Source: Podarcis pityusensis (lineage: Eukaryota). From it: a stretch of DNA of 64,000 nt. Below the pieces are notes generated by a model that saw nothing but the letters and a program-made list of their open reading frames with translations, was not told where the DNA came from and did not search any database. The stretch lies in the NCBI GenBank assembly GCA_964106645.2, contig OZ067045.1. The stretch is one strand, 5' to 3'. Shown one piece after another: positions 9,907 to 31,400 of the stretch. The stretch's first letter is position 1, and each line of letters opens with the position of its first letter. The position numbers and the translations under genes were made by a program.

Positions 9907-10239
9907 CGCGGGTGGTGCTGTGGGTTAAACCACAGAGCCTAGGACTTGCCAATCAGAAGGTCGGCGGGTCGAATCCCCACGACGGGGTGAGCTCCCGTTG
10001 CTCAGTCCCTGCTCCTGCCAACCTAGCAGTTCAAAAGCACGTCAAAGTGCAAGTAGCGGGAAGGTAAATGGCGTTTCCATGTACTGCTCTGGCTCGCCAG
10101 AAGCGGCTTAGTCATGCTGGCCACATGACCTGGAAGCTGTATGCCGGCTCCCTTGGCCAATAAAGCGAGATGAGCGCCGCAGCCCCAGAGTCGGTCACGA
10201 CTGGACCTAATGGTCAGGGGTCCCTTTACCCTTTACCTT
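9907..10239 (+). mobile_element. Near full-length Sauria SINE
   Basis: tRNA-like head (GGTGGTGCTGTGGGTTAAACC..GGGTCGAATCCC), typical body, (ACCTTT)n tail, and 7-bp TSD TAGTGTA at 9900-9906 and 10240-10246. Confidence 0.9.
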
Positions 10240-10322
10240 TAGTGTAGCTGCACTTGAAACCAGGCTATCTTCTGATCAATAAATCCCCTCCTAACAATAG
10301 GACCAGCACAGTAGATATTTAC

Positions 10323-10519
10323 CCGTTCCCGGAAGCCAGGGTTCTCTGACAGGTTGCGCAACTGTGCTGACACGGCCCCGACAACCTTGCTGTTTCCTTC
10401 AACAAGAAGCAGGCTTAAGGCTTTCAGCCCATCCTTACGAAGCCGGCTCTCAGGAACGCGTTTCAGGGCCTTCAGGACCACGTCTTGGTCATCAGAATTC
10501 AGGTTCTGTGCTAGCAGCA
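10323..10519 (-). CDS. RIPOR1: RIPOR1 exon (V)LLAQNLNSDDQDVVLKALK..NPGFRER
   Basis: 197 nt, TATAG acceptor, GTAAAT donor, phase 1 to 0. Confidence 0.95.
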
Positions 10520-10586
10520 CTATAGTGTGAAGGCAGAACCAGCTCCATGGTTAGCTACATCATTATTTATTTATAAAGTTCATTTA

Positions 10587-10849
10587 CTGTATTTTTTGCT
10601 CTATAAGACTCACTTTTTCCCTCCTAAAAAGTAAGGGGAAATGTGTGTGCGTCTTATGGAGCGAATGCAGGCTGCGCAGCTATCCCAGAAGCCAGAACAG
10701 CAAGAGGGATTGCTACTTTCACTGCATAGCGATCCCTCTTGCTTTTCTGGCTTCTGAGATTCAGAATATTCCCCCCCCCCCTTGTTTTCCTCCTCCAAAA
10801 ACTAGGTGCGTCTTGTGGTCTGGTGCGTCTTATAGAGCGAAAAATACGA
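10587..10849. mobile_element. Tc1/mariner-superfamily (Tc2/pogo-like) MITE
   Basis: TIRs CTGTATTTTTTGCTCTATAAGAC / GTCTTATAGAGCGAAAAATACGA, TA on both flanks, internal hairpin at about 10683-10758. Confidence 0.8.
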
Positions 10850-11647
10850 TACATACTCCTTTTCAGGAATACATCTGGGAAAGCTGAAGACCAGACACAA
10901 AGGGTTATTGTATCCACTGTTAGTGCCACTTAGACTCACTGAAATAGATAGACCTCTGGGTCTACTCTTGAGTGAAAGCTGGTTGGCTACAACCCTGAAA
11001 TTTTTAAATTTAAGCAATCCAAAATTAACGAGTAAATAAATGCATAAAACAAATATATAAATCATTACAGCATTTTAAAATTACTCCCATCATGCATATA
11101 CATTATAACCCAAATTTATAATAGTCAATCTATAATTGATGGAACCTTTATTTTTTCCAGTTTTGACTAACAGTCGTTCTAACTGCAGCAATAAGATGTA
11201 CAGTATCATTTCTCCATCCTCGGCTAATATTAATGATTTAACATAGCACAATATTATGGATGGTAATATACATATTTCCAGTCATCTTGTACGCTGGTCA
11301 TTGCTAACTTCAAGTATTCCATAATTTGCGACATTTCCAATAAATGCAAGTTGCATCTGCTTGAACTACAAGCAGGAATTACAATGCCAGTGAATGGCAT
11401 TAACTCCCGAGTCACTTAGGGACAAATTTAGTAAGAATCCCTTTATGTGGCTTCTAATAGGTAGAATGAATAGCCTCCCCTAAAAAATGCCCTTGTGATG
11501 GGCAGGGTGATGATCAAACCCTTTAAGTAGCATGTGAGCCAAGAGGTATGGACACATGCGCAAGTCTTCACTTGATGTTGCTGCTATCTGGCATCACAAC
11601 ATGCATGTGGGAACCCTCCATGAATCTTCACAAGTCACACAACATAC

Positions 11648-11806
11648 CTTCCTCCGCCAACTCCATGATGTAAGAGTCCAGCGTCAAGACAGGCAGAGCC
11701 TCAAAGTGGCTCCAGTATTGGAAAACAGTGATCTGCTCAGCCTGGCAGCTCCCCTGGCGCCTGGGCAGTCTGCGTTGCAGAAACTCCTCCACCAGCTTCA
11801 CACACA
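11648..11806 (-). CDS. RIPOR1: RIPOR1 exon (V)CVKLVEEFLQRRLPRR..IMELAEE
   Basis: 159 nt, CACAG acceptor, GTATGT donor, phase 1 to 1. Confidence 0.95.
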
Positions 11807-12409
11807 CTGTGGCAGGGGAAAAAACACTGTCAAGGTGGCTCCCAAATACTTGGTAGATGTACCAATCATATGACAAGGGTCTTGCAACTACACCCAGGCT
11901 TCTGAATGGGACTGGAGTATGGTAGGGACTTGGGAACAGTCCCTGGGAACAAGCTCAGGGGTGGGTTCACTCTTTGGATATGAATAAAGCTTTGAGGAGT
12001 TCATTCTGAGTTACACTCATTTTGCCACCACCCTCAACAGTTCAATCATAGTCAAAGATCAACCCTATCAAACAAATCATGGGTCAGTTATACTGTCAGT
12101 CTTTAACATATCTCGACACAAAAAATGCTGAACTAAGTCTAAGGCAAAAGAACAGCTAAAAGGTTCCCTAGGAGTCATTCCTTTATGAAAGTGAATTTTA
12201 GGGCATCACAAACGACCCTTGTCCTCTAACCATACTCACCTTCCTCATAAAAGAAGCATACTGCACAAGCATAGGAATGGATATTTGGCCCAGAATTCAG
12301 CACTCGGGGAACCCCCAGATTCATTCATTAAAAAATCCCAAGCATCTGGACCCCTGACAACATGAAATATGAGCCATGCCTGCTGGAACATAAAGCTGGG
12401 AACCAAGTG

Positions 12410-12702
12410 GAATGAGGAATGCCTGAAAGACACAGGTGTGCTTAGGGGAAGACGTGATAGCCGTCTTCAAATATCTGAAGGGCTGTGACAGAGAAGATGG
12501 AACAGCCTTGTTTTCTGTTGCTCCAGAGAGCAGGACTAGTACTAATGGGTGGAAATTGCAAGGAAACACATTTAAGCTAAGTGCTAGGAGAAACTTCCTA
12601 AAAGTAAACATTGCAACAGTGGAACAATTTGCCTTATGAGGTGGTAAACTCGGGTTGGATTAAATAGCTTCCAAGGTACCTTCCAACTGTATGATACTAT
12701 GG
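12410..12702 (+). mobile_element. CR1 LINE 3' fragment (degenerate ORF2 C-terminus plus 3'UTR)
   Basis: Translates to DVIAVFKYLKGC..LFSVAPESRT..NGWKLQ..RRNFL, followed by a CR1-like tail CCTTCCAACTGTATGATACTATG. Confidence 0.8.
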
Positions 12703-12929
12703 AATATCAAAGCTGGAGTGGGACTGAGGAGGACTTCTAGCAGTCAAGGTATCAGCCCCTTGCCCATCCCACATCACTAGCTAAAGCATAGATGTGCACA
12801 ATGTGCAGGTTCATGCTTGAATTGCAAAGAATATAAAAAAGACTGCAGATCGTAAGATGAAATTGGGGGCAGTGGAGAGAGAAGTAAAGCATATAGTAAG
12901 TACTGTCCTGCGTCCAAAGTCACACCCAC

Positions 12930-13091
12930 CTGGATCTGCCAGGCCGTGCTGGCGTTCGTTGATTCGTGCCGCATACTGGGAATTGAGTGTCTGCAAGAAT
13001 TTTTCTACAGGGCAGGTGTATAGATTAGGCATGACCACACAGTTGTCCCAGAAGAGCAATACTCCCTCCTTCCATGAAGAAAACTCTACCA
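12930..13091 (-). CDS. RIPOR1: RIPOR1 exon (V)VEFSSWKEGVLLFWD..HGLADP
   Basis: 162 nt, CTCAG acceptor, GTGGGT donor, phase 1 to 1. Confidence 0.93.
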
Positions 13092-13806
13092 CTGAGAGGA
13101 GAAAAAGACGACATAGACAGCTTAGACCTCTGGTTATGATAATGACACCAGGAGGAACATTTCCCCCCCGAACCAGTCTTACTCTTAGAAGCTCCACAAA
13201 TGTCTCTCTTTCCCTCCCCTGCAAAGTATGCTATACAAATTTACATTGAAAACAGCAGTCAGCAATGCTCTAAAAGTACACTCACCATATTTACGGTCAG
13301 CTGTACCCATTCCTTTGCACGATGAGCTCAAATTGCAAAGGTCTGCAGAAAGTGGCTGTGCACAACTCTGATTGGCTAGCAGCTGTAAGGTCAACATCTC
13401 CTCCCTCCCCCATTCTCAATTTAGTTTTACAACTCTTTAAAAATTGTTCTTTTAAAGAAAGGGGTTCAGGGAATGTTACATTGAATAAAGGCAGACACAA
13501 TGCTTTAAAAAACTTTTTAAATATAAAAAACAAAGGATGGGAGAAAGGGCAAAACTAACAACTATTGCAGGTATAAATGTATCTTACAAAGACAAGGCAG
13601 CAGGAAGCCAACCTTACCCTATGGAAGAAAGACAAACAGCTTGGCTGCATGCTTTGTTGTATATTTGCAGACACCCTTTGTAGAAGAACAGTTGACTCCG
13701 CCTCCCTGGATTCTATTTCTCACTGTATCCTGCAAATAAGTGCCAATTCCGGTACTGGTGTAGCTAACCCCAGATTCATTCCACACCTGTCCTCTTTCTT
13801 CCTTAC

Positions 13807-13942
13807 CTTCCTCAGCAGAGCTGGCTGTCCCTGCTCGCTCCTCTGCTAAGCGGCAGACCATCTCCAGGACTTGTGCTTCCCTCGCCAGCCTGTCGAGTGC
13901 ATACATTTCCCGGCAGCGGAGGGGCCCAAAAGTGCCCAGTTT
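13807..13942 (-). CDS. RIPOR1: RIPOR1 exon KLGTFGPLRCREMYALDRL..ASSAEE
   Basis: 136 nt, CCTAG acceptor, GTAAGG donor, phase 0 to 1. Confidence 0.95.
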
Positions 13943-14815
13943 CTAGGAATCAGATACAAGTGGGAAAGATTCTTAGTGGAGGTGGTCAATCTCAGCTCAT
14001 ACTGTGCAGGGCATATGGGGAGCCCTTTTAAGGTAAGGCTCCAGTACAAATAGCTACTCCCCCCTGGTTAGGTATCATGTGCAAGAACAACACAGAAGGG
14101 TAGGCCTGGCATCAAAGCTGGGACTCAACAACTTGAGTGATGTCTGACTGACAGGATGGTCAAAAAAGACGAGGAGGAGGAGGAGGAGTTCCAAGGTAAG
14201 GGCCAAGTCTTAGGTTCCCTCTAGTGGTGGGAACCAACTCTGGATGTTGTTGGGCACCAACTCCCATCAGCCCAAGTCAACATGGCCAATGGCCAGGAAT
14301 GATGGGCACTGTAGTCCATCATCGTCATCTAGATTTCAGAGTCTTGGTTTTGAATGAGGAAGCCCTAAAAGGCCTGGGACCAGTGTTATCGAAGGACCTC
14401 CTTTGGTATCAACCTGCCTATCTACTGAGCTAATCTAACAGGGCCTTGCTCCAGGTGTTCCTGCTGGCTGGTTATCAGAGCCTTTTTCCATTGTGGAGCC
14501 CCAACCATACGCTTTCCCCAAGTTTTTGCCTAGCACCTGTTTCTTACGTTTCTTCAAATGGCTTTGCAGGGTTTTCATTGTGGGTGGCTGTTGGGTGGTG
14601 GTGGTTGTTGTTTTTTTAAAAAAAATCTGTTCATAGTACTGCTTTTTTAAATGTGCATTTGTATTGTACTTTCATTTGGCTTTATTCCTTATTTTGTTTT
14701 TGGTTTTTTTAAAGCTCTTGCAAACCCTCCTGATCTTCATTTTTATACAAGGACAATCATCTTGCACAATGAAAGACATAGCCAATTCTTCACTGAAACC
14801 TCACTGTGAACTCAC

Positions 14816-14996
14816 CAGCAGCAAGCGATTGCAATGGTTCAGGTGTAGGACCAAGGCCCTGTCGAGGAACTCGTTGCCAGTGCTCATGGGCTCTGAGCCA
14901 CCCTCTGAGCTTAAGCACCCAGCTGTGTCTTCAGTAACAGCCTCACTGGGTCCTGGTACCCTGCCCAGGGGTGCAGGCTGTGCACTGCTAGCCTTC
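14816..14996 (-). CDS. RIPOR1: RIPOR1 exon KASSAQPAP..STGNEFLDRALVLHLNHCNRLLL
   Basis: 181 nt, CACAG acceptor, GTGAGT donor, phase 2 to 0. Confidence 0.92.
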
Positions 14997-16504
14997 CTGT
15001 GAAAAGAGCCAGCAGGGAAGATATTAGCAGGGATCCAGTCCTTTGCAAGCCCAACTTTCTTCACTCTGTCAACCCCTGAACATTGAAATGCATTGGAAGT
15101 ATGATTTGGCTTGTCCCAGCACCCATGTAACACCAAAAAGCTCCTGAACAGGTCTGAATTAGGGCTGTGATATCTACTTGATTAACTGGCAAAATCAAAT
15201 ATATAACAAACTTTAATCAACTGAAAAAGGTGTCTCCCTGTTAATCTGGCAGAAGATTTTTCTGAAAATGAGAACATATACTTCTTGCCTCACAAATGTT
15301 TGCCCAACATGCAAATTGAATGGAGTAACACAAATCAATCCATTGATTTTAAACCCTCCTCCGTTATCATATCCTTAACTGGGTTGCGGATCTAGTCGAG
15401 TGAGCACTGCAACTTCGACTGCCAGTGTCTCAACAGAGCACTCCTGAACACTTTTATCCACTTTGTGCTCCAAGACATTTACACTCCCCTTTTTGCAATG
15501 GTCTACTTTTCTACAGAGGCTGGAAGAGAACAGGTTCCTGCTGGCAATATCCAGGGCTGGCCGCTGGGTGGCACTGTTGCAGCACAGCCTGCTGGAATTC
15601 ACCTGTCAGGCCAGGCTCATTTCCGGCAGCTGCATCGGCACTGTGGGAAAAGTCCATCTGGGTCTCTTAGCATGCCAAGCAGAGACATTAGCCTGGAGCA
15701 AACACAGAGCCCCAGCCAGACAAGGGAGCCACTAAGAATCCAAACTATCCCTGAACTGTGGGGGCCTGTTTATAAAAACCAACTATCCTGAGATAAAGAC
15801 CTCTGAGCTCCCTTCAAGTTCTGGTACAGGGAGAGGATACACAAATAAACTGGAGGAGAGTCAACAGCCGTAGGCTGTTTCATCCTAACTTAAGCTGAGC
15901 ATTGCCAATTGGTAGGCCAATGAATCAGTGTTATCTGGCCCACCTTTAATCAAGGTTTTTTTTCCAAAAAAGTAGTAGTAATATTCATACAAATAAAAAA
16001 AAAGAATAGGTTTGAAAAAGCTGAATATATTCCCATTTTACGTCCACATTGGACTTTCTGTACAATGCTCCTGGTTATGCCTGAATACAGAAGTTTGTTC
16101 ATTATGAAGGAAAAGGCTGCAGCTCAGATGTGGTGCACTTGAACACAGGAGGTTCCTGAAGAACTGCTGCCAATCAGCGAAGACAATACAAAGCAACTTG
16201 GAACAAGGGTCTGACTTTGTGTGAGGCACCTTCCAATGCTCCTATGAAGCTTTTACCATGTTAAGGGTCACCAGTGCTATCAGAGGACTTGACCGCCCAT
16301 GATGGATTTGGAGAGTGTGAGAGAAAATATACTTTTAGGCCACAGCTGGAGAAGACAGGGCCCTTTAGAGAATACAGAAGCTGGTCAACCTGATTAAAGC
16401 TACGGTAAGGCTGTTATTTAATAGCCAGAATTTGCAGTTTGTCGTCTCATCAAAGATGGTTAAACAAAGGGGTGTTGTGGGAGAAACACTTTGTGTACTT
16501 TAGT

Positions 16505-16570
16505 GCCATAATAAACCTGTTAGTATTTTAAGGTGCCTTGGTATATTTGTTGTTTTTGCTGCTACAGAGG
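16505..16570 (+). mobile_element. Old Penelope-like element terminal fragment
   Basis: ATAAACCTGTTAGTATTTTAAGGTGCC..TTTGTTGTTTTTGCTGCTACAGA resembles the PLE end seen at 37775-37828. Confidence 0.4.
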
Positions 16571-17073
16571 AAGAAGGTGACCTCCCCAGAATTCCTTGTT
16601 CCTGTAAGACAGATGCTCTTCCAGGATAACCACCTGGGACAATTGTAGAACCTCAGTAGTGTGAGGAAGCTCCAGGGCAGGCACATGCTAGCCAAGAATG
16701 TTAAAAGCTTGCAGGCTCCTGTTGTTCAGGAATGGGAAGCCTGTGGCCCTCCAAAGGTACTTGCATTCCAGTTTCCAAACTGCTCTGGCCAGCGCAGCCA
16801 ATGGTCTGGGATGATGGCAGCTGTAGTCCAGCAGGAACTGGAAGGCCACACCTTCTTCAGTTAACACCTCATCATTTTGGGATGAGGGGTTTTCTAATTT
16901 TGCCCCTTTGCATTGCAAGCCTCCAATCACTTTTCGCTATAAAACTGAATATTACTTTGTCCCCACTTCTCATACAGATCGGAATCCCAACATGCTGGGG
17001 TTCCGCTTATGTCCACTTTAACTTTTGGCAGCCTACACTGAGTTCCCCAGTAACCTATCCCAGCCTCACTCAC

Positions 17074-17189
17074 CCATCATCGTCTGAATCTTCTGTATCA
17101 GAAGCATTGAGGAAGCTGAAACTCTCCAGAGCATGCTCTACCGTCAGGCTGGTGCTGGAGGCCCGGCTCAGGCACACACCCTGCTTTTG
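17074..17189 (-). CDS. RIPOR1: RIPOR1 exon QKQGVCLSRASSTSLTVEHALESFSFLNASDTEDSDDD
   Basis: 116 nt, CACAG acceptor, GTGAGT donor, phase 0 to 2. Confidence 0.95.
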
Positions 17190-18323
17190 CTGTGGGATGA
17201 GGGGAAAGAAAACAAGCATCACTTTGTCCACTCTGGCAGCTGTTTCCTATGTCTGCCAGCAAAACACTCTGGGCCATGAGATCAAGCTGTGATCACCTGT
17301 GCTTCTGTGGTTGCAGCCGCTGTAGCTTCGAGAAGTGAGAAACTCGGAACAATTTCTAAGGGGAAAGTTGTGGGGAGGGGACATCTTCTAATCTCATAAG
17401 TATAAAAGCATAAGAAAAATGTCAAAAGCAATATTTGGGCAATAGCTTTTATCAGAACAACCAAAATGTCACAAAACTTGTGTGCAAGCTTTTAAGTTCT
17501 CCAGAACCCTTTAACAGGCTAGATGGTAAACAAAGCTGGCTGGCCCAGGGGTGGGGGAGAAAGGGAGAAACTTGGCTGAGAGTGAAGCCAGGGAACCTCC
17601 ATCTGATCTCCACAGATGGAATGTGGAAGGAGGTGGCAGACATTCAGTCTCATTTTCCTCAGGTGCCATGCAGCTTTCAGGTTGCACTTAAGGATGCTGG
17701 GAAGAAGGAACATACCATATTTTTTTTGCTTCTATATGTAAGGCAGAATTTGGCTTCTATGTGTATCTGTTTGTGGGCTGAGTGTTGGATTCTGTTGGTC
17801 AGGATGCACCTTAGCAAGAGGATGAAAAAGGAGGGGACCCCGGATTCTAAATGTGCTTCAAAAACTGTTGTTACATTTGGGGGGGGGGGAGAGGGTGTCT
17901 TGTTTTATTATACTGTATTGTAGCTCTGATTTATATTACATTGCATTGGATTATATTACATTGTAGTTTCTCAGTTTTCTTTTTGTTATATACACATATT
18001 GCTATTTTGTTAACTGCTTATGTGTATCTGCAACAGTAACTTCACCAGACAGGGTGGGAACACTAGAAAGGATTTACAGTGGTCAGGGAGCGAGGCTTCA
18101 GGGGTCCAACGAATTATTCTTTTGTTCTTCCCTATGGTTGGCACAAATTATGCAAACAACAACAAGCAAATATGCACAAAGTGAGGTTTGTTTGCACAAT
18201 TCACACAAGTTCCAGAATTCAGCAAAGTATGGTTAAAACATTTTATTACAGCTCTAAATATACACAGATCCAGGGATGCTGTCCTTCCCCCAGCCATGGT
18301 CTTCTTCACCCCCTCTCACTCAC

Positions 18324-19025
18324 CAAGAGAATCTCCTCTAGGTGCTTGAGCTCCTGTTCCAAGGTCTGTAGCTCAGGGAACTGGCCTCGGTAGTCATCTA
18401 GAGCAGAGGCCAGTGAGTTGATGGCCTCCTCCAGCCCACAGTCCACAGGCTTGGGCTTTGGTGGCTCCAAGAGTCCCACTGGCTGAAGCTCCTTTGGGAC
18501 CGGCAGGCTCAATGAAAGCTTGGGCTGTTCAACCTCTTGGGCTTGGGAGGCTGTGTCCTCAGTCCCTTCTACAGTGGGAGTGGCCCCATCAGGCTCAATC
18601 TCCTGTTCTCCAGCCTCTATGATCTGAGTGTCCAGCACTGAGCCTGCACTTTGGGGCAAGGAGTTCGTTTCCAGCGGAGGCAGGTCCCTGGGACTGGAGT
18701 CTCTGGGGACAGTGCACTCCTTTTCCTCTGCCAATGGCAGGTCCACACTAGCCTCGCTGATCTGACTAAGTGTCCGAGCATAGGGCACATGTCCGTTAGC
18801 CACAGCCACCTCCTCGCGAACGGCTGGTGGCTCTTTGTCCTCGGGTTGCGTAAAGGCAATTTCTATGGCAGGTGGAGTTGCCTGTACTGCAGGTTGCACA
18901 ATAGGCCTGGGCAGTGTATGGCGGTCACTTCCAGACAGCTGTGGGCTAGAGGAATCATCCGAAGACTCTGAAGAGATGGACCAGGCTGCCCCGTTCTCAA
19001 GCTCCTCCTGCTGCCGCAACATGTT
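18324..19025 (-). CDS. RIPOR1: RIPOR1 large central exon NMLRQQEELENG..LDDYRGQFPELQTLEQELKHLEEILL
   Basis: 702 nt inside ORF 18306..19106, TCCAG acceptor, GTGAGT donor, phase 0 to 0. Confidence 0.95.
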
Positions 19026-20825
19026 CTGGAAAGAATGCAGCATAGATGAGACACGAGGGATGCATTGAGCATAGTGCATGTGTGCAAGCATGGAAACATC
19101 TGTCACTGCCTACACCCCTGCATAACACCATCACTTCCTTCCACCCCCCCCAACTCCTTTACTCTTCAGGCTCACTGAATTTTCCTTATTTGTGCCCCTT
19201 GACCCCCATGATAAGCTCCATTGTTATACCAGGCTGCAACTGAGCTCCCACTCTCTTCACTTGGCCAGCAACAGACACTTGGGAGATTGTGCCCTTTGGG
19301 TGGAAAGATGCTGGATATCAGAGAGACTGCAACTTTGGTAGGAGCAGGAAGCGCAAAATGTTGGGTCATCATTTTGCGACTCGGCTCCCCACTGGAGAAG
19401 ACAGCTTGCCCAGGATGTGTGATGCTGCATCTTTTACAGACAAAAGCAGTCTGCTTCAAGTCTCAACAGTCTTGGAGACAAGACTCCAGGGCAGCAGCCC
19501 AGCTACTTGTGGGCAGTTAAATCAACCTCCCTTGCAAGTGGGGTTGGATCCAGAACTGGCCAGGAGGGCCATCGTTCCTAGCTGTCCTGTTCTTGGTTTG
19601 CTGTGACAACTCAAGGTGCCCTCAACAAGATGGCAAGGCACCTGAGAAACATTTCAGCCCCTAACCATTCTCTGACAGGCTGCTTGGAGGGATATTGGCT
19701 TCCAGCCCTCCAGCCCAACCCTTTCTATTCAAAGCCCTTTGTGCTTCTTTACATAGCTTCCACCACGCCTCTATACATCCACCACCCATGGATAAGGGCA
19801 GGAATTGCAGCCAAGATGAGACACACGAGTGATTTGTTTGTTTGCCAGGCCCCAGCACTGAGCCACATGTCACAAATCACATGGCAAATTATATGCCAAT
19901 TCTCTGCTAATCTTTGTGGCAGACAAGGAGGAAATCACTGTTTATTTCAGGTAGCACCCCAGACGAAGGAATGTTGCACAATTCCCTGAAGGTTACATTT
20001 CCTCCTTTCTTGAGATACCTGCTCCAGTTTGGAAATACCACAAATTACACAGAGGAACACGGGAAGCCACCTCATGCTGAGTCAGACCAATAGTCCATCT
20101 AGCTCAGTACTGTCTACACTTACTGATAGCATCTTGCCAGGGATAAGGGACATTCCCAGCTGTACCTGGAGCTGCAAAGAATTGAACCTGGTACATTCTC
20201 TGGGCAAAGCATCTGAATTACCACTGAGCTACAGCCCGTACACACACACACGTCAGCTTGGGAAGCCTAGAGCAGGGAGGGGAAACCTGTCATCCTCCAC
20301 ATGTTCAACTCCCATCATAATTTACCATTTGCAATGCTGGCTGGGGATGATGAGAGTTGGAGTTCATCATCATCAACTGGAAGGTCAAAGGTTCCTCAAG
20401 TCCTGGCCTACAGGGAGGCAGCTCTTCCTCAGCCACCAAATCCACCAGAAGGCAGCCATATGATGAATATGGGCAGCACATAGAAGGCTGGTATATTACA
20501 GAAGGCAAACTGGTGTGAGGAAGAAATCTACTACTACAAAAAGCAGGAGACGAAAGCCTGTATGATCCGCACCCTGCCTTCAGGGGCAGCAGCAAGTAAG
20601 CACACGATCGCCACAAAACACCACAATCTGGGAAGACAGGGGAAGTCCACTGCTCACTACTGCAAAGCAGCAGAGGGACAGGCAAGATTCTGCAGTGAAT
20701 CCACTTGCCTTATTCACAGCTCTGATTCAGGCCTTGAAACAGGAACCACAGACTAGCACACGGGAGACAGAGCACAGCTACATCTACATCAGGTGACTAG
20801 GCTAAGCTAGAGGGCCAGCACTTAC

Positions 20826-20969
20826 ACAGCCCCGAGGTGCCCTTGTGCCGAGCTGCACTGAGGAGACGTCGCTGCATGAGCAGCTCCGCGGCAGCCTCTC
20901 TAGGAAAGTCTCCCGGAAGATGTCCAACAAGGCCCACCTGTGCTTGTGGGGAGCCTCCCGTGGCAGGCT
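20826..20969 (-). CDS. RIPOR1: Putative RIPOR1 cassette exon SLPREAPHKHRWALLDIFRETFLERLPRSCSCSDVSSVQLGTRAPRGC
   Basis: 144 nt, open, phase 0 to 0. Branch-like GCTGAC, polypyrimidine tract, AAG acceptor, GTAAGT donor, CpG-rich. Resembles the RIPOR2 alternative exon at the same position. Confidence 0.7.
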
Positions 20970-21124
20970 CTTGAGCGGAGAAAGAGGCAACGGTCAGCAC
21001 CAAGGGCTTAGCTCCATTACAACATGAGACTCACTTGCCTTACAGACAATCTGCTGGTGCTTCTCCCTGGCAATCAGGACCACTCTGGTTTCTATAACTG
21101 ATTGATCTGCCAGTGTGGGGGTAC

Positions 21125-21313
21125 TAGAGTCTCAGACTGGGACCTGAAAGACCCGGGTTCCAATCCCCGCTCAGCCATGATGCTCGCTGGGTGACCTTGG
21201 GCAGATCACTGCCTCTCAGCCTAATCTGCCTCACAGGGTTCTTGTGGGGATTAAATGAGGAGGGAGAGAATGATGCACATCACCTTGAGCTCCTTGGAGG
21301 AAATGCTGGGATA
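21125..21313 (+). mobile_element. Old tRNA-derived (MIR/CORE-like) SINE interrupted by the MITE at 21316-22006; A-rich tail resumes at about 22009-22033
   Basis: B-box-like GGGTTCCAATCCC and core-like TGGGTGACCTTGGGCAGATCACTGCCTCTCAGCC. Confidence 0.65.
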
Positions 21314-21315
21314 TA

Positions 21316-22006
21316 CCGTATTTTTCGTCCCATAGGACGCACCTAGTTTTTTGGGGGGGAAATAAAGGAAAAAAAATTTCCCTTTATTTCCCCCCCAAAA
21401 GCAGGTCGGGAAACCGAACAAGGTCGAGGAACAGCGGGATGGCGGCGCTGCGCCTCCCTGCTGTCCCCCGAGCTTGTGGGGCTGGCCGATGTCTGCCCGG
21501 CGCGCGGGGCGCTCTGCTTCAGGGCGCCCCGCCCGCCGGGCGGCAGGCTGCTATCCGCAGCGTGGGGAGCCCTGCGGGGAACTCCTGCAGGGCTCCCCAT
21601 GCTGCGGATGTGTTCCCGAAGCGCAGGGCGCTCTGCTTTCAGGGCGCCCGGCGCTCCGGGAAACAGGCTACTATCCGCAGCCTAGACATCCCTGCGGGAC
21701 CTCCGGCAGGGCTGCCTAGGCTGCGGATGTGTTCCCGAAGCGCAGGGCGCTCTGCTTTCAGGGCGCCCGGCGCTCCGGAAACCAGGCTGCTATCCGCAGC
21801 CTAGACATCCCTGCGGGAACTCCCGCAGGGCTGCCTAGGCTGCGGATGTCTTCCTGAAGCCTGGAGAGCGAGAGAGGTCGGTGCGCACCGACCCCTCTCG
21901 CTCTCCAAGCTTCAGCGAAAGCCTGCATTCGCCCCATAGGACGCACCCAGATTTCCCCTTCATTTTTGGAGGGGGAAAAGTGCATCCTATAGAGCGGAAA
22001 AAACGG
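21316..22006. mobile_element. Young GC-rich Tc2/pogo-like MITE with internal tandem repeats
   Basis: TIRs CCGTATTTTTCGTCCCATAGGACGCAC / GTGCATCCTATAGAGCGGAAAAAACGG, TA TSD at 21314-21315 and 22007-22008, CpGs retained. Confidence 0.85.
21508..21860. repeat. Three 119-bp GC-rich tandem units, each self-complementary
   Basis: GGCGCTCTGCTT starts at 21508, 21627 and 21746. Units 2 and 3 contain ATCCGCAGCCTAG..CTAGGCTGCGGAT; unit 1 has a variant. Confidence 0.85.
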
Positions 22007-22423
22007 TAAATGCATTTTTAAAAAAAATAATAATCTGACATTTCTCCTATCAACCAGATGTTGTCCTCTCCTTTCTTGTACTAATTTCCTCAACTTCTTC
22101 AGCTCAAGACAGAGGCCTGGTTCAGATGCAAAAGTCTTGACTTGATAAACTAAGGTTTCTTGTACTGAGAACAAGTGTTGACCCCTCCACTTCTCCCACA
22201 TGCCTTAATGCAATATGTTCAAAGTAGGACTTGCTCTGAAGATCTCTCCATCTCATATAGCATTGTGGCTAAAAGTCTGAGCTGCGATCCAGGAGGCTGC
22301 TGATTTTTAGTCACATCTCAGCCACAAACTTAGTTGGTGGGACTTAGGAAAGCTACAGTTCTCCCAACTAGGACCAGGAGTGTGGGTTTTGATTCCCTTC
22401 CAGGTTTTTCCCTTTGCACTCAC

Positions 22424-22553
22424 ATAAAAAGCCTGTTCACGCATAGATGGTGTATCAGGTGGGCTCTGGTTGTACGTGGAAAATCTCTTGTTGACTGTAG
22501 ATGTCTTTGTCACAGTGCTAGCAGATGATGGTTGGTCCTCTTTGTCAAAGGGG
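22424..22553 (-). CDS. RIPOR1: RIPOR1 exon PFDKEDQPSSAS..PPDTPSMREQAFY
   Basis: 130 nt, ACCAG acceptor, GTGAGT donor, phase 2 to 0. Confidence 0.95.
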
Positions 22554-22941
22554 CTGGTGAAAAGAAAGCAGAGTGCTCAGAGAGAAAAGTGAACCACCCC
22601 TCCTGTACACTGATGTAAGAAGAGAAAGGGAGGGTCACACATTATTAAATCCTCTTGGGGAGTCACCATCCAGAGCAGCCTTCCAGAAGTTCTGGACCAC
22701 AGATCGCATTGGTCCCAGTCAGCACGCTATACTTGCCATGGGCTGTTGGGAGTTGTAGTTCAAAACACCTGGAGGGCACTAAGCTGGGGAAGGAGGATCT
22801 ATAGTACCATGGTCCCAGTTCCCTCACTTATCAGGCCCCTTCCCTTCAGGTTCTGTAAGATCACAACCTTCCTCACCCAAGAACATTTCTAACACAGCTC
22901 CACAACAGAGAAACTCAACAAGCCTCAAGCGAATAACTCAC

Positions 22942-23090
22942 TTCCAATTAACCTCCAGGCTCAGCTTGATGGTGCCCAGGTCATTGATATCTACTGCCAC
23001 GACCTGTGGCAGTGCTGCAAACAGGTCCTTGGTTTCACAAGAGACGTTCCCCACCACCACATGACTGGCCAAGCTCTTCAGCTCTGTTAC
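22942..23090 (-). CDS. RIPOR1: RIPOR1 exon [33 protein letters not shown]
   Basis: 149 nt, CCCAG acceptor, GTGAGT donor, phase 0 to 2. Confidence 0.95.
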
Positions 23091-23185
23091 CTGGGAGGAG
23101 AAGGAAGAGTTGAGGCCCAGTAAGCCTAGGAAATGAATTGTCTTTCCTGTGACAGGGGCCAGCTGCCCAGAGTGGCACCAGATAC

Positions 23186-23311
23186 CTTGATGGACAGGAA
23201 CTCTGTAATGAGGGGCAGGAAGATCATCTCCTCACTGTCCCACACTTGCTTGCTGTTTGCCTCAATGCGGCCCCGCAGCTTCCACCGCTGGCGCCCGTAT
23301 CTCATGAAGAT
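23186..23311 (-). CDS. RIPOR1: RIPOR1 exon [23 protein letters not shown]
   Basis: 126 nt, GGCAG acceptor, GTATCT donor, phase 0 to 0. Confidence 0.95.
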
Positions 23312-23521
23312 CTGCCACAAGGAATAAGAGAGTTCAGATCAACTGGATGGACGTGAAACAAGGTGTGCATCCTATCAGAGCTGGACAAGAGCTAATGCAA
23401 TCAGTGCTGGGGAACCAGATTCCCCTCCAACAAGCTGTTTGGTCAACTCCAGTTCATCTAGTTTCCAGGACCCAAGCCCCTCCCTCTCCACATGTTCTGA
23501 GCCCATCTCTAAGTCACAAAC

Positions 23522-23565
23522 CTCATATTGGTCTCCGGCACAGAGCCTAGCAAAGCCAGCCAATC
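23522..23565 (-). CDS. RIPOR1: RIPOR1 exon (G)LAGFARLCAGDQYE
   Basis: 44 nt, TGCAG acceptor, GTTTGT donor, phase 1 to 0. Confidence 0.95.
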
Positions 23566-23847
23566 CTGCAAGAGGAAAAAAAATGTCAGTGCCTCTGTCA
23601 TGACCCCACAATTTTGCTGATCCACTTAAATGACAAGAGGTGTGGGATAGGGTGCAGATACATGTTTAGGAGGTAAACTTGCAGCTGGAATTTCATATAT
23701 GGGATCTGGAGTAAAACATCCGCTTTCAAGAAAAAGGGTTAACCCTCCCACCCACTTAGGGTTATGCCCTCCCAAAGCTGCTTTTCAAGTTACAAAATGG
23801 CCACCAGACATCCCTTTGTATATGACATATTGTTTGCTCTTCTGTAC

Positions 23848-23911
23848 CTTTCATCTTGATGTGGAACTCTCCCAACTGACTCTCTAGTTCACTCTCCAAC
23901 AGACACATATT
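23848..23911 (-). CDS. RIPOR1: RIPOR1 exon [21 protein letters not shown]
   Basis: 64 nt, TCCAG acceptor, GTACAG donor, phase 0 to 1. Confidence 0.95.
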
Positions 23912-24022
23912 CTGGAAGGGGGAGAAACCAATAAACTGTCCATTAATGCCGCCAACACAAAGCCTGGTCCCCATTCCTCCATTTCCTTCCTCCTCCCTCA
24001 GTACCAGGCCATCTTGACTCAC

Positions 24023-24175
24023 CTCTGTGTACTCTTTGTAGCCCTTGCTAGCTTCAGCCAAGCTCTCGCGTGCCTCCTTGCTGCCAGGTGAACCAGCTGT
24101 GTAGGCCTTGACCATGTTGTGAGCTCCATCCCGAAGCCGCCGCTGGATGCAGTAGGCCTCGTAAAGCTCATCTAT
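24023..24175 (-). CDS. RIPOR1: RIPOR1 exon [25 protein letters not shown]
   Basis: 153 nt, AACAG acceptor, GTGAGT donor, phase 0 to 0. Confidence 0.95.
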
Positions 24176-24770
24176 CTGTTAGGAAGTAAACCACAGAGCT
24201 AGGATGATGGGCTGTAGGGGATGCTTGGCAGAAAGTTTGGTTGCCACAAACCCAGATCAGTGGAAGCATTCAATAGGGTCTCAAATTTCAGTGGCACCCT
24301 GTGTGAACCCAAAATTGGTATGTCCCCCCCCCCCACTTCCATTCAACATCAAAGTTGTAGCCGCCCCTGAGGCTCTGCGCCCAGTGTGACCGAACCAGCC
24401 ACACTTCCCTAAATCCTCCTCTGCTCCCACCATAAAGCAAAGGTGGAAAACCTATGGCATTCCCACTGTTACTGGACTCCCATCAGGCCCAGCTAGCATG
24501 AGTAAAGGTCAGGAATGATGGGAGCTGGGACCCAGCATAACCTAGAGTGCCACAGTTTCCCCACTACAGATATGAAGTGTTCTAGGGAACACAACAGACT
24601 GCTTTGCTTGGAACGTCGGTCCCCTACATAGCTATCTGCCTCACGGCGAGACTATACAAAATGAGCAAATATATACAAACATACTTAAATTGCATAATAT
24701 TCAAAGGTAACAGAGTTCAGCTTTTCTCAGGGCAGAAATTCTGTTTTACAAGCTGAGAAGCAGCTGGTAC

Positions 24771-24824
24771 CTTGCTAGCGTGAAACTCCAGACGGCGCAG
24801 AAACCGCTCAATTGACTTGACTTG
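24771..24824 (-). CDS. RIPOR1: RIPOR1 exon QVKSIERFLRRLEFHASK
   Basis: 54 nt, CACAG acceptor, GTACCA donor, phase 0 to 0. Confidence 0.95.
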
Positions 24825-26832
24825 CTGTGAGACAATAAAAGGAAATCCCATTAGACAGGAATTGGAAATCCGACTGACTAAGTAGTGAAGGTCCCAGAAA
24901 TCCTTTACGTTCCCAGCTTGCCCAAGAAAGGATTGGGGTCTTTCCATTTGCAATAGATGTCGTATTGGTGCTTACAGGCTAAACTGATTCCTTTGCTGAT
25001 CTGTTTTAGAGCAACAAGTTCCTGATATGTATCTTCATTGGCAAAAGAACAGTATTTAAAGCTAGGCAGATATAGCCTAGCTCAGGTTAATCACTGGGCA
25101 ACTGGCCAGGGTCCTTCCATCTGGCTGCTGTTCTATGGGCAAGAGGAAGTCATTCAGGGTTGAAAGGCAGGGGTAGGAGAAACTGGCAAAGTTGCTTTCT
25201 TTTAGGCACCAAGCAAAAAGCTGGTTGGTTTGCTCCCACTTTCAATGCTTCCCTCCTACTTTTAACAGAAAGCACATCTTAAAAACATGCTACTCCTTTT
25301 CTTTTTTAAAATCCATCAGATTAGAGGCCATCACTACATCATATCAGATATGCCCATGAAAAGAGAAGTTCAAGTCAGCAGACTGTAAATAAAAAGGAGG
25401 CCTGGAAGTGCTCATTTTCTTCTCTCATTTTTTAACTCAAAATTTCGGAACCACACATCTGCCCTCCTCTGCCTGCCCAAATGCAGCATCCTTTCACCAG
25501 GCAAAGCTGACCCCCAAAGAGAAAGCTCATTTCCTGTGCTTTTTGTTGCTTGGGGCAGAGTGCAGGATGCATATAAGTTGTAATGAGGACTAGCCCATGG
25601 CTGTTTCTCTCCCAGTCACCACATTTAGCAAATATACTGGTTTCCTTGATGTCAAGCACTGGGAAGAAAAGAGATTAGAAACTAACTATGAAACTTCATC
25701 ATTTTGACGTTATTATTATTTTGAGATTTCATTATCTATTTAAAAGATAAATTAACTACCCCTTTTCCTTATGTTTCTAGCATATTTATTTTTTATTTTT
25801 GCCTTCAGTTCCTCAAGGAAACTTCTTGGAAAAGAGCAGCTTCAGCCAAGGCATGCCTGAGTTAAAACTGAAAAAACTGCCCCCTTGATTTCTTTATGTT
25901 CTCCCGGCCCCACAACCAGAAGTTTCTGCTGCAGCTAATACACAGACTAACCTCAGGCTGGAGATAGGCAAATAGTTTTTATAAGAGAGTTGCAACTGGC
26001 TCAAGAGAGATTTCGCAAGGTATTTACCTAATGGTATTTCTTTTATTCACTTCATGTCTCACCAAACAGGTTTTGCATGTTTTTGAAACAATGCAAAGTC
26101 TTGCAAGAACTGTTTATCAGATGCAAAAGAGCAGGATAGGGTGTTTACATCCACTCTTTTGTAGACGATCCTACTCTTTTGATATGAAAGTAGCAATACC
26201 TGTCTTGGAACCACTTTCCACCCCTCTCCAAGGTGGGGAAGTTATCATCTGCTCCACTATAAACCAAAAGCAACCTCAAAGGCTGCCAGTCTGAGCAAAG
26301 GAAGGGCCAGCAGGGTGCAGGAGAAACTGCTTGACTCTTTAGTCTATAGCCATTGTACAAAGCTCAAAACGGACCTCCCCAAGCTTCTTCCCCCACCCCC
26401 AGGATATCTTCCCCTGCATTTGAGAAAGCAGCTGAAGAGATCAGAAATGCAGGATTAAGCATTCCTTCATTCCCCTCTTCTGCTTTTGATTATGACTTCC
26501 AAGGCAGCTTTTAAATTAAAGAGAAACACCAGTGAAGAGAGATGCAGAACTCCTGCGTCACATCTAGTTTGGCTCTTAAGGCAGTTGGCCAGCAAAACAA
26601 AGGATTCAGGAAGTGACATCTGAAGGAAAGCAGCAGAAGCAGCAGGAGAGAAGCATCACTGAAGTCAAGTAACTTGACTTTCTGTGCTAGCAAAGGCAGG
26701 GATAAGAGATGCAACCCAAGGCCCAGAAGCTTCAATGTCTTGCATCCAAGCGATACAGAACTCAACGGGTTGGCAAGCCCTCCCCCACCCGCAATCCATG
26801 GCAAGCACAATTTCCTTCGCGGCATGCCTTAC

Positions 26833-26856
26833 CTTATCAAGATCGTACAGAAAGCC
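26833..26856 (-). CDS. RIPOR1: RIPOR1 24-nt micro-exon GFLYDLDK
   Basis: CTAG acceptor, GTAAGG donor; fills the exact gap between NSRL and QVKS. Confidence 0.93.
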
Positions 26857-27474
26857 CTAGAGGAGAAAACAAGGAGAAGGTGAAGGTTAGGCAGAGGTCA
26901 GAAAAAAATGATTGCTGAATACACAGCCCTGCTGGATTAGACCAAAGGCCTACTTAGTCCAACATCCAGTTTCCCACAGTGGCCGGCGAGATGCCTATGG
27001 TAATACCACAAGCAGAACATGAATGCAGTAGCCCTCTCCTGCTTACGATCACCAACAAGTTGTATTCAGTAGCACACTGCATCCCATATTGGGAGATAAA
27101 ATCCATTCATCACAGATCAGTTGCTACTGTTATCCTTCTCCCCGATGAAGTTGTCGAACACCATTTTCAAGTTGGTGGCCAGCACCAACTGTTCCCAAAA
27201 AGCATGTACAGTATATGTGTCCCAAGAACTGTCGTCTGCCCCATAGCTCTAGGGAAGCACCCTCAGGATCAGAACTGTTGAGAGGCTACAAACATGGCAG
27301 AAGCCAATGCTGAGTGAGAGGGCAAAGGCTCCAAAACAAACAGTACCAGAAGGCTCCTTCCCTTCCCTGACCTGTCACAGTCTCTCTACTATTGCCAGTC
27401 CTGCACTCTGGGGAGAATGAAGTGCATACACTGAGGGCAGGAATGCTTTTAGTTGGCACCAACCCTCCACTCAC

Positions 27475-27553
27475 CAGTCGAGAATTCCTCTTGGACTCGC
27501 GGATTTGGGTGCTCAGCTTCTCCAGCTCCAGCTGGTGCACCTCCAGATAAGCA
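27475..27553 (-). CDS. RIPOR1: RIPOR1 exon AYLEVHQLELEKLSTQIRESKRNSRL
   Basis: 79 nt, AACAG acceptor, GTGAGT donor, phase 2 to 0. Confidence 0.95.
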
Positions 27554-28337
27554 CTGTTAGGGGAGAAATGGGGTAAGCAGAAGCAGCAGGACTCTTCCCC
27601 TTTAAGTAAAGAGATATGGGGAGACAGCATCCTGACCACTCTTTCAAACTTCTACAGGATGTTATCCTTGGCAGCAAGGACCCAAACAGAATCCTTGCTT
27701 CCAGATTCCCAGGAGGCTGTGCCCAGTTCAGCTGTGTCCAGCAGAGCTTTCGGTTCGCCAGCTTCACTGAGAAGGCTACTGGTATAGACTAAGGTTTAAG
27801 CAAACATACTGTGCTATTTGCCTGCATGTACCCTCACCGACTCAAACATACTTTGTGGAGAGTTGGTGGGGAGAGGGAATATGCAGGCACGTAGTTCATT
27901 GTTGTGTGGGAAGAAATATTATACTGTATGTGTATAGAGGGAGGCAGGGCAAAAAACTATCCCACCCTCCACAGGCCAGTTTTTACAGGTGGGAGAGGTC
28001 TGAGAAAGTTGGTTGGGGCTGATGGGAGTTGTAGTCCAAAACATCTGGAGGACACTGGGCTGGCAAAGGCTGGGGCATACACATGTTAGTTATGGTTATG
28101 GTTAGTGTTTGTTATGATCACTGGGCAGCTGGCGCCCCACCCCGTTGAGATCTGGGTTCTATCTACCACTGTTGGGTTTGTACTGCTAGTGAGTTTGCAT
28201 TCCAACATTCATTCTAGGGAGCCTCAAACATCAACATGTGATAGAAAGATGGCATTAAACAATTTTCAATGAAACAGGCACCTCCACCCCAAGCCACAGG
28301 TTAAGAGGGTGGGACTTCTGGCAGCAGCATCACTCAC

Positions 28338-28490
28338 GTCAGTCCCTTCTTCAGTGCTTCATACACTTCGTCGAGTCGCTCCGGCTGGGGCACCTTGGGT
28401 GGAGGGGATTTGTGGGACATTGAAAACATCCTACTGACCCTGGAGCCAGACTTCCTGGAGACCGTTGGGGTGCTGAAGGCAGGGAAATTC
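28338..28490 (-). CDS. RIPOR1: RIPOR1 exon NFPAFSTP..KVPQPERLDEVYEALKKGL
   Basis: 153 nt, TTTAG acceptor, GTGAGT donor, phase 2 to 2. Confidence 0.95.
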
Positions 28491-31400
28491 CTAAAAAAAT
28501 AAAAATAAAAATCCTCAAGCAAAGTATGACGTCGTGGAGCAGGGCTGACTCTTAAAACAATGGAGTGAGTGTACCCATGTGTGGGGGAGAGCTTTGACTC
28601 ACAGTGCAGAGCACCTATCACAAAAATACATGCACTCAGGAGGAAGCTTTCCACACTACTGCTGCTGCTTAGAGCGAATGCTGAAAGCACAGAAAATGCT
28701 AAAAAACCAACCCACAGTAAAGATCATTTTCCCACGCTTTATACCCTGAAAGTGGGTCACTCGGACTGCATGAACCGGATCTCCTATTGTAATATGGACT
28801 ACCAGGAACAAAAGGGGAGGGGGAGAACCACAGAGCACCAGCAACTCTGCACAGTGCCATTTGGAAGTGCACTTCTAAACCCTTTAAAGTATATGTCCAG
28901 CAGGGAACAGCATGCAGCACTTCACAAATGCTATCCTAAGGAAGATGCTCCTTACTCAAAGAGTAGTGCACATGCCTGAGTATTGTCACAACTCAGATCA
29001 GATTGTTTTGGTAGAGTCACTCGAGTATTCCCTGTACCCTAGTATATGGGTAAGGAACTTGATCTGTCCAGTGGGCCAGATCCTTATTTATCCTATCCTA
29101 GCAGGCCAAATCTGGCAGGTGAGCAGGGTGCCCCAACTGTCCAATCATCAGGACTTCAAAACAGTACACAGGGCTTGCAAATTCTCTGAAGTACCACTGA
29201 TTAGGAGGGTTAATCAGCTGATGGGCAACAACTCCAAGCCTGCTTTTTGCAGATATCACCTGCATGATGGAGTTCTGCATGGGGAAGTTGGTTTACAGCT
29301 GATTCAGCCACGATTCTACCTGCCCCATACCTAACATGACATATGTTGTCAGATGTGGGGAAGGAGTTCATGGTTTGAGAGAAATAGTGCATGCCAAATT
29401 GGAACCTGCGCCAGGACAAATTTGGCCCACAGGCTAAAGACTGCCCATCTTGCCCTAGCGTATAACTGAAGAATCACAATGAACTCCTGACTCTTGAATT
29501 TCATTCCCTCTTCTTCTCTCTTCCAGCTAAAATTAAACCCTGTTTTCTCTCAAACATGTGCTAAATTTGATTCTAAGCAACACTGACTAGTTTAGTGGGC
29601 ATGGCTGTTACTGTTAAATTGATCCCTGCACCCCCTAGAATAATTGTTTTATTCAGGCTCCAAATTCTTGCTGCCAGATTAATATCCCATGCTATTTTGG
29701 GAGTTACTGGTCAATCTTTTATTGCTACAACAGGAGCAGGGAACCCTTAGCCACCCATATGTTACTGAACTACAGCTTCCACCATTCCTGACCACTGACC
29801 ATTCTGTGGCCGGGGCTGATGGGATCTGGAGTCCATAAACAACCAGACAGCCACAAGTTCCCCATCCTTGTGCTGCAGGAATAGTCCCAAGTCTAGAAAT
29901 TGTGCATCTTGCTGGGAGGACTGGAACTAAGAAGGATGCCTTGCTGTTAGGAAGCCTTAGACAGCTGACCATGACAGCATGTCTTCTGCAGTAACAGATA
30001 ACGAGTAGGGAAGTACATGCTTATCACGTTCATGACATTTTTGCTCCTGACAGAGGTAAGAAGGAAGAATGGACAAGTGTTGATTGCAAAGGAACATAGG
30101 AAGCTGACGTAGCAGGTCAGACTGTAAGTCTGTTTAATCTGGTACTGTCAACCCTCATCTGTGGCAGCTCTCCACAGTCTAGGCAAAAGCCTTCCACCTC
30201 ACCTGCTATTTTATCCCTCCAACTGGGGGTGGCAGGAATTGAACCTGGGATGTTCTGCACACAAAGCGTGCTTTCTAGCAGTAAGCTGCGGTCTTTTCCA
30301 GGAACAGACCGGGCAATAGTAAAGAATCCCAGATACAGTAGGTTGTGGGTGAAAAGCCCAGTAAACCTGGACATAAGCAGCACCATGCTAGCAGCTGAAG
30401 ACCAGCACTCATTAAGAAGTTCAGAGGAGACCAACAAAACAAAACAAAACCAGAACCCCAGAACAGGACAAACATGGCTAGTTGGAATTGGGGTGTGAAA
30501 GAGAGCCAAGCAGAATGGCCGAGGATTGGTTCTTAGCCCAACAGCTTCATGATCCAGCATTGGCTTTTATACTAATTTTGCCTATGGCACTTAAAGGCTT
30601 ACACCAGCCCCTGACTGGTACTCTTGAAAGACTTGGAGGCAGGTGAGGAGATGAACAGAGCAGGAGACTGAAGCCAACTGGGAGGCACTGGTACTGTACA
30701 ACATGAAGTAATATTATCTTTCAACCAACCCAATAAGCCTCTAATATGGTAGTCCTACCTAGATCTCTGTTTTTCATGGAAATAACTTGCTACCTTACTT
30801 CTATAAGTACTAGGAAGCCTGTAGCTTCTTTTCAAAGGCTTAGGTTTTTCCATGATCCTTCACAAGCAACAGTACGGTACTTTGTAGACTCCACTCCCTT
30901 CAAGGGTAAGAAACACAAAATGACTCCAACAGCTGGAATTCTGATATCAGCTCTAAACTTTCAAAACACAGCAACTGACAGAAATGAGGATTCCAAATGT
31001 CAACAGTCTCTGTGTTGAGATGGTAACCGTCGCTAAGCCAACAGGTATTGCTTCTTCGCAGATGTTCCAAGCTCACCAGCAGAAACGTGAAATGTTATAT
31101 TTGGAGCAATTCCATGCTGCAAAAATGTTTGCTGATTTGAAATACTGATTTACAGAATTGTTCTACACATTGGGGAAGCGATTAAAGAAATCTGATGTTA
31201 TGGATTTTGACACTCCTGCGCCTTCTGCCTCACCCTGACCCAAACCTAAATGTTCTAGCACTGCCCATGGGCAATAAGGGCACTGAGTATGGTGAGCTGA
31301 TGGCACTTGTTTGCAGGCCTGCCTTCCCTCTGTTTAATTACTGCAGAAACAGGAGCATTCACCATCAAGTGGAATTTCTGTTGCATCTAGCCTGGCTCAT

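Follow-up and report, generated by a model that had tools for sequence, protein, structure and literature searches.

RIPOR proteins tie Rho GTPases to cell polarity, to the orientation of the Golgi, to the migration of immune cells, and to hearing; their route to membranes is described as unresolved (PMC6141708, PMC4898930, accessible parts). The RIPOR1 gene of the lizard Podarcis pityusensis raises the question of whether one of its introns holds an optional exon, how old such an exon would be, and what it would add to the protein. An earlier note, made from the letters alone, claimed that a hidden cassette exon lies here, paralogous to an optional segment of RIPOR2 and kept in reptile RIPOR1. 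Below, “the window” means the whole stretch of 64,000 nucleotides that was analysed.

The host gene can be assigned to RIPOR1 because the form of its 12-exon stretch that skips the cassette matches RIPOR1 of Podarcis raffonei at 557 of 559 residues. The Podarcis protein was also placed inside the RIPOR1 clade in the tree. Pfam finds the PL48 domain (PF15903) in RIPOR1 of Varanus (P0002) and no family that matches the 48-aa cassette peptide. For the host protein, no relative with a solved structure was found by sequence, the ESM Atlas gave no usable match, and Foldseek with the low-confidence N-terminal model returned none at E <= 0.001. The following features, all on the minus strand, are used throughout the text.

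9184..32844, minus strand: RIPOR1 (FAM65A), the host gene; its coding exons were located with tblastn.
22424..22553, minus strand: upstream constitutive exon with the end of the PL48 domain, ending in AFY; borders from the exon map.
20993..20997, minus strand: branch-point-like CTGAC, its A at 20994 (-25); a consensus match only.
20970..20992, minus strand: pyrimidine tract (15/17 pyrimidines) and AAG acceptor.
20826..20969, minus strand: RIPOR1 cassette exon, 144 nt, 48 aa, phase 0-0.
20892..20942, minus strand: conserved helical core, peptide positions 10-26, from column conservation and the helix in two AlphaFold2 models.
20868..20885, minus strand: S-C-S-C-S-D motif with Cys codons at 20882-20880 and 20876-20874, aligning to S-R-S-F-[SG]-D of RIPOR2.
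20820..20825, minus strand: GTAAGT donor, a sequence match.
18324..19025, minus strand: large downstream exon that starts with NMLR and opens a low-confidence, probably disordered linker.

The description of the segment in the earlier note is accurate: it is stop-free (48 codons from 20969 to 20826), lies between the AFY and NMLR exons, and is flanked by the branch-like sequence, pyrimidine tract, AAG acceptor, and GTAAGT donor. The 12 RIPOR1 exons from 28490 to 18324 keep an open frame both when the cassette is included and when it is skipped. There is no AG from CTGAC to the acceptor, and the AAG is the sole non-YAG acceptor among the 12 exons. A manakin model that reads through the acceptor spot has Lys directly before the exon, which suggests that the AAG is conserved. 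The 3.4-kb intron holds one exon candidate, the cassette itself, and 96 of 500 shuffled introns contain at least one; by themselves the splice signals are within chance expectation. Neither RBFOX nor QKI motifs turned up in a scan of the sequence up to 300 nt from the exon, and the 11 YGCY motifs in the 300 nt downstream come from a scan without a control and are uninterpretable as enrichment.

The exon stands above chance because it is conserved in RIPOR1. The Varanus model has the same borders as the lizard 48-aa peptide, with 81% identity (E = 8e-13), and both the Varanus and the Laticauda models agree with the window exon in cassette borders and length. The lizard core is identical at 17-24 of 28 residues to ten RIPOR1 proteins ranging from snake to bichir. 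Judged by this conservation, the exon at 20969-20826 is real.

Several other features of the surrounding sequence deserve mention. A GC-rich element of 695 nt (21314-22008) lies about 350 nt upstream of the cassette exon. It has imperfect inverted ends (23 of 29 positions match by eye, starting with TACCGT), internal tandem units of 119 nt, and many hairpins. These features resemble those of a non-autonomous DNA transposon, presumably of the Tc1/mariner kind, and the element could influence splicing of the cassette exon. A SINE-like sequence adjoins it at about 21120-21310, which we take to resemble MIR/CORE. At about 8570-8595 on the minus strand there is a short terminal exon, closed by a stop, that agrees with the C-terminal end of a Podarcis model (P0114) and departs from the consensus for this end in other RIPOR1 proteins; RIPOR1 may thus have alternative last exons. 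Positions 1-1200, downstream of RIPOR1, are GC-rich (69%) and CpG-island-like; an adjacent gene probably has its promoter or first exon here.

The distribution of the exon was surveyed with the Varanus region, including the exon, as the query; the best 120 of 1,068 matches were considered, all of them cluster representatives. The exon is present in 101 of these 120, skipped in 18, and replaced by other content in one; as the exon in the query biases the ranking, 101 of 120 is an outcome of rank and not a frequency. In the 101 carriers the insert between AFY and the next exon is 38-61 aa long. Tallied from entry names, these carriers include 77 teleost entries, nine bird, six amphibian, five sturgeon or paddlefish, two squamate, one lungfish, and one bichir; there is no turtle, crocodilian, shark, or mammal among these representatives. 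All 18 skip forms in the same set are lepidosaurian. Predicted models of both kinds, including and skipping the exon, exist in Varanus (P0002/P0094), Anabas (P0082/P0144), and Sander (P0089/P0147). A peptide search of a 50%-cluster library gave 11 matches, 10 of them nameless, which were left out of the counts.

Judged by these gene models the exon is a genuine optional one, as proposed, but neither hidden nor peculiar to reptiles. It is already in automatic annotations of RIPOR1 in non-mammalian vertebrates, as predicted isoforms of fish, amphibians (including frogs), lungfish, and birds. Some database names in this family are misleading: P0113 is called FAM65B and has a RIPOR1 sequence, P0228 is called tolloid-like protein 1, and several fish entries named “RIPOR2-like” or “regulator 2-like” are the teleost duplicate of RIPOR1.

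Within the cassette, the mean modal fraction over 40 aligned RIPOR1 rows is 0.72 for core positions 10-37; the upstream exon reaches 0.91, the 40 residues that follow 0.82, and the linker beyond 0.49. The helix has no fixed length: 25 of the 101 cassettes have 39 aa, and four helix residues are missing in 11 of the 40 rows. In spiny-rayed fish entries (P0068, P0071-P0099, and related ones) the cassette is shorter by four residues, roughly one turn of the helix, and keeps the cysteine cluster.

Mammals appear to have lost the exon. The earlier note stated that human RIPOR1 joins AFY directly to NML, and exactly this is seen in the named human and orangutan entries. In a yak model (P0119), 25 residues from Val to Gln stand between AFY and NML; they look like a retained intron of about 75 nt. 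Such an intron cannot contain a 144-nt exon. The simplest reading is that placental mammals lost the exon. From a single yak model, three entries of primates, and the lack of mammals among the cluster representatives listed, we regard the loss from mammalian RIPOR1, at least in the placentals seen, as very probable.

Teleosts have a second copy that nests within RIPOR1 in the tree. At least 13 entries of this duplicate among the matches listed (P0153, P0158-P0160, P0162, P0164-P0166, P0168, P0173-P0175, P0180) have an optional segment of 31-44 aa at the same junction, from which the Cys pair is gone. Scored with the RIPOR1 cassette profile described below, five of the 13 segments are matched by at most 4 of 1000 shuffles and another five by more than 160, so that the likeness to the profile holds for some of them only. 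Models with and without the segment were found in medaka, Brachyistius, Archocentrus, and Odontesthes.

The paralogy with RIPOR2 was studied in a length-restricted search, in which the best 120 of 567 matches were considered and 20 nameless ones dropped. Six named RIPOR2 proteins (seal, mink, gecko, and three fish) have a segment of 49-50 aa in the same place, in agreement with the segment of about 50 aa given in the earlier note. According to Pfam, the last PL48 residue is 361 in RIPOR1 of Varanus and 363 in RIPOR2 of mink, and in each protein this is the start of the optional segment. A profile built from 82 unique RIPOR1 cassettes hits the segment following PL48 in all six whole RIPOR2 proteins with 14-30 bits, and reaches at most -2.1 bits on 18 skip-form RIPOR1 proteins; for each of the six, none of 1000 shuffles scores as high. 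Comparison of the RIPOR1 cassette with the RIPOR2 segment by hhalign gives a probability of 96.5% (E 1e-9). The lizard peptide aligns with each RIPOR2 segment, gap-free as claimed, over 31-39 residues, and none of 2000 shuffles scores as high in any case. By these comparisons the RIPOR1 cassette is homologous to the optional segment of RIPOR2.

The exon borders agree with this as far as they can be read from proteins. A trout model reads through the exon end and indicates a phase-0 donor; the 3' phase of the RIPOR2 segment follows from this read-through and from the point at which seal and mink diverge, and the 5' border was taken from the alignment. Since human RIPOR2 residue 566 lies in exon 14 (bioRxiv 10.1101/2019.12.20.884726, as far as its accessible text goes), the segment occupies residues 360-409 in mink, and the cassette is the 12th coding exon found in the window gene, the optional segment of RIPOR2 is, by its position, most likely exon 13. 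The ATG exon of the window gene carries its own acceptor; the cassette is exon 13 as well if one exon precedes the ATG exon.

A tree of the N-terminal part, from which the cassette was excluded, separates RIPOR1 from RIPOR2 at 100/100. Ray-finned fish and tetrapods occur on both sides, and a shark falls in RIPOR1. Because the segment is paralogous and the tree has this shape, the exon is older than the RIPOR1/RIPOR2 duplication, which itself is older than the radiation of jawed vertebrates. The broader claim of an origin before the RIPOR duplications thus holds for the RIPOR1/RIPOR2 split, the only pair compared; no RIPOR3 or invertebrate sequences were among the matches listed in the two surveys. 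Altogether, we have hardly any doubt about the exon, its frame, its conservation, its paralogy, and the occurrence of both isoforms in gene models.

The most distinctive part of the RIPOR1 cassette is the Cys-x-Cys motif. Among the 101 cassettes (best 120 of 1,068 matches) the first cysteine is present in 95, the second in 99, both in 93, and neither in none. In the 40 aligned rows the second Cys and the Asp are each kept in 39 and the middle Ser in 37. Given the counts across the 101 cassettes, Cys-x-Cys is as old as bony vertebrates. We therefore rejected a reptile-specific change of the motif. The wording that R-S-R-S-F-S-D “has become” R-S-C-S-C-S-D has to be abandoned too, as Cys-x-Cys occurs throughout RIPOR1, bichir and birds included, and the RIPOR1 and RIPOR2 sequences compared contain no outgroup to give the change a direction. 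Two single-base codon changes would convert one of the two motifs into the other. In RIPOR2 the motif is S-R-S-F-[SG]-D in five of six proteins; the segment of Weddell seal RIPOR2 (P0161, from residue 273) has Cys for Arg where the first Cys of RIPOR1 stands, an independent half-step between the two motifs.

The residue at -3 in RIPOR1 is mostly Gln (25 of 40 rows; Arg in 8), which means that RIPOR1 does not conserve a site for basophilic kinases. Gao et al. reportedly mapped the 14-3-3 sites of RIPOR2 in 2015. The 14-3-3 mode I consensus (RSXpSXP) has Arg at -3, Ser at -2, and Pro at +2, according to the accessible part of PMC5666830. The R-S-x-S of RIPOR2 has Ser or Gly at +2 and no Pro, and the suggested 14-3-3-type motif is therefore not of this mode.

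Upstream of the cysteines, both AlphaFold2 models have a helix from position 8 to 24 of the cassette, with pLDDT of only 43-52; some six residues separate its end from the first Cys. The most conserved positions common to both paralogs are the hydrophobic helix positions, a Thr, a Leu, two Ser, and the Asp. The earlier note proposed an amphipathic helix; the helix is indeed predicted, with this low confidence, but it is only weakly amphipathic. The best 18-residue window of the lizard peptide has a moment of 0.36 and net charge 0 (592 of 1000 shuffles are as high), and a 13-residue core has a moment of 0.42 at 100 degrees (1324 of 5000 shuffles). With moments of 0.36-0.42 within the range of shuffles and charge 0, a classical lipid-binding amphipathic helix was rejected.

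What would the exon do? The best explanation, which we consider fairly probable, is an ancient regulated exon of RIPOR1 whose cysteines are S-acylated and which shifts RIPOR1 to membranes. The ancestor of RIPOR1 and RIPOR2 would have possessed the exon by the time the jawed vertebrates began to diverge; it would have been retained in RIPOR1 of ray-finned fish, lungfish, amphibians, squamates, and birds and lost in mammals. The weak AAG acceptor would lead to skipping by default and leave inclusion to regulation. Inclusion would add 48 residues right after the Rho-binding PL48 region: a short helix with a hydrophobic face, then a six-residue modification cluster. The Cys-x-Cys of this cluster would be doubly S-acylated, the helix making the first contact with the membrane or the enzyme, and the long RIPOR1 would stay on Golgi, vesicle, or plasma membranes with no need for Rho binding. 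The corresponding positions of RIPOR2 would form a basic, RxRxxS-like phosphorylation site.

S-acylation as the mechanism is a more tentative proposal than the explanation as a whole, and we put it somewhat short of even. S-acylation sites typically look like this, with paired conserved cysteines near a hydrophobic helix and a surrounding linker of low confidence. The cassette looks like a predicted S-acylated insert of this kind, with conserved cysteines beside a helical patch, and acylation fits it better than a disulfide because 8 of the 101 cassettes (best 120 of 1,068 matches) keep a single Cys. The open-access literature gave no report that links RIPOR1/FAM65A with palmitoylation or S-acylation. 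Points that weigh against the explanation are the modest moment and low pLDDT of the helix, its variable length, the absence of RBFOX and QKI motifs near the exon, the missing Cys pair in the teleost duplicate, and the tie of the Cys-Ser-Cys in the BK-channel exon STREX to hypoxia sensing, which favours a redox role. RIPOR1 is known to bind active Rho via HR1 and CCM3 with MST3/4 via its C-terminus (PMC5201024, accessible part).

As for tissue, we lean slightly towards neural inclusion, by analogy with RIPOR2 exon 13. In mouse, Fam65b lacking exon 13 occurs in many tissues including cochlea, and the larger form with exon 13 in brain, cerebellum, spinal cord, and retina only, according to the accessible text of Zhao et al. 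(2016, PMC4898930). Phosphorylation moves RIPOR2 off the membrane (PMC6141708, in its accessible part). It is conceivable, at about one chance in three as we judge it, that one ancestral cassette gave rise to two chemical switches, a basic phosphosite on the RIPOR2 side and, on the RIPOR1 side, an anchor of two cysteines that carries lipid or responds to redox state; splicing, probably in neurons, would then decide whether RIPOR1 has its anchor.

The alternative that survives best is a docking module, in which the helix would bind a partner or fold onto the HR1/C2-like region and alter Rho binding or oligomerisation, and the cysteines would do no more than enlarge the binding surface, a part that Phe plays in RIPOR2. 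It is possible but appears rather unlikely. It suits the positions best conserved in both paralogs, the conservative hydrophobic swap of Cys for Phe, and the net neutral lizard helix. Moreover, the shorter RIPOR2 isoform 2 binds RhoA more strongly than isoform 1, although the C-termini of these isoforms differ too (PMC6141708, accessible part). It leaves unaccounted for why RIPOR1 has Cys, as opposed to Arg, fixed at the first position (95 of the 101 cassettes). Neither AlphaFold2 model has a confident helix, and at pLDDT of about 50 or lower the models are uninformative on docking and too weak to exclude it.

It is less likely still that Cys-x-Cys is a redox, nitrosylation, or metal switch through which oxidation or hypoxia would act on RIPOR1-Rho signalling. 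The STREX exon of the BK channel has a Cys-Ser-Cys whose residues C23, S24, and C25 are required for hypoxia sensitivity (PMC8727448, PMC12346439, accessible parts), and the well-kept middle Ser and following Asp of RIPOR1 would agree with such a switch. However, a match of three residues carries little weight, RIPOR2 has the Ser and Asp too, although five of its six proteins have no cysteine there, and the single-cysteine cassettes speak against it.

We consider it quite improbable that the lizard exon is a decaying, rarely included relic on the path taken by mammals, functional only in fish, amphibians, and birds. The skip forms (18 of the 20 lepidosaur entries among the best 120 of 1,068, the Podarcis representative included), the AAG acceptor, and the Arg of Varanus and Laticauda at a position with Trp in 38 of 40 rows could be read in this way. 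But cluster representatives hide other isoforms, and the window copy retains the Trp, both cysteines, the frame, and the canonical length, with a core identical at 20-22 of 28 residues to those of bird, lungfish, bichir, and sturgeon. A chance pseudo-exon or convergent likeness to RIPOR2 has next to no probability: comparable splice signals do arise in the shuffled introns mentioned above, but an orthologous peptide in at least 101 proteins, the same position in the paralog, and the shuffling results for all six RIPOR2 proteins rule it out by conservation and homology.

Searches of the open-access literature turned up no description of the RIPOR1 exon, its paralogy, or its acylation; subscription journals, supplements, and splicing atlases may list the event. 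The cysteine motif and the apparent mammalian loss of the RIPOR1 exon were likewise not found described there. The surprise is moderate: cassette exons shared by paralogs are well known, as is the loss of exons in single lineages, and automatic annotations already contain this exon. A RIPOR1 twin of RIPOR2 exon 13 provides a long alignment that marks the key residues, namely the helix face, Thr, Leu, and S-x-S-x-x-D. The isoform of zebrafish and chick RIPOR1 that is seemingly absent in mammals is a caution for model work. If the proposed anchoring is true, fish, frog, lizard, and chick models would have a membrane-anchored RIPOR1 that is invisible to human and mouse work.

Among known systems, the predicted long RIPOR1/FAM65A isoforms of NCBI and UniRef contain the same exon as the window; they are automatic models with no function described. 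S-acylation of STMN2/SCG10 uses two closely spaced cysteines. It is required for vesicle association of STMN2 and also brings about Golgi association (PMC12264562, accessible part), as would be expected of the long RIPOR1, but it acts in a constitutive N-terminal domain and not in an internal optional exon. The BK channel (KCNMA1) STREX is, like the cassette, a vertebrate cassette exon encoding a cysteine-bearing insert, and this insert is palmitoylated (PMC8727448, PMC12346439, accessible parts); it belongs to another gene and has 58 aa, and we draw an analogy only and claim no homology. The closest counterpart is RIPOR2 exon 13, which shares with the cassette its place at the end of PL48, its length (49-50 aa versus 48), the gap-free core, its optional use, and possibly the exon number. 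It differs in its more basic helix, in having S-R-S-F (S-C-S-F in seal) in place of the S-C-S-C of RIPOR1, and in being kept in mammals, with brain-confined inclusion in mouse (PMC4898930, accessible part).
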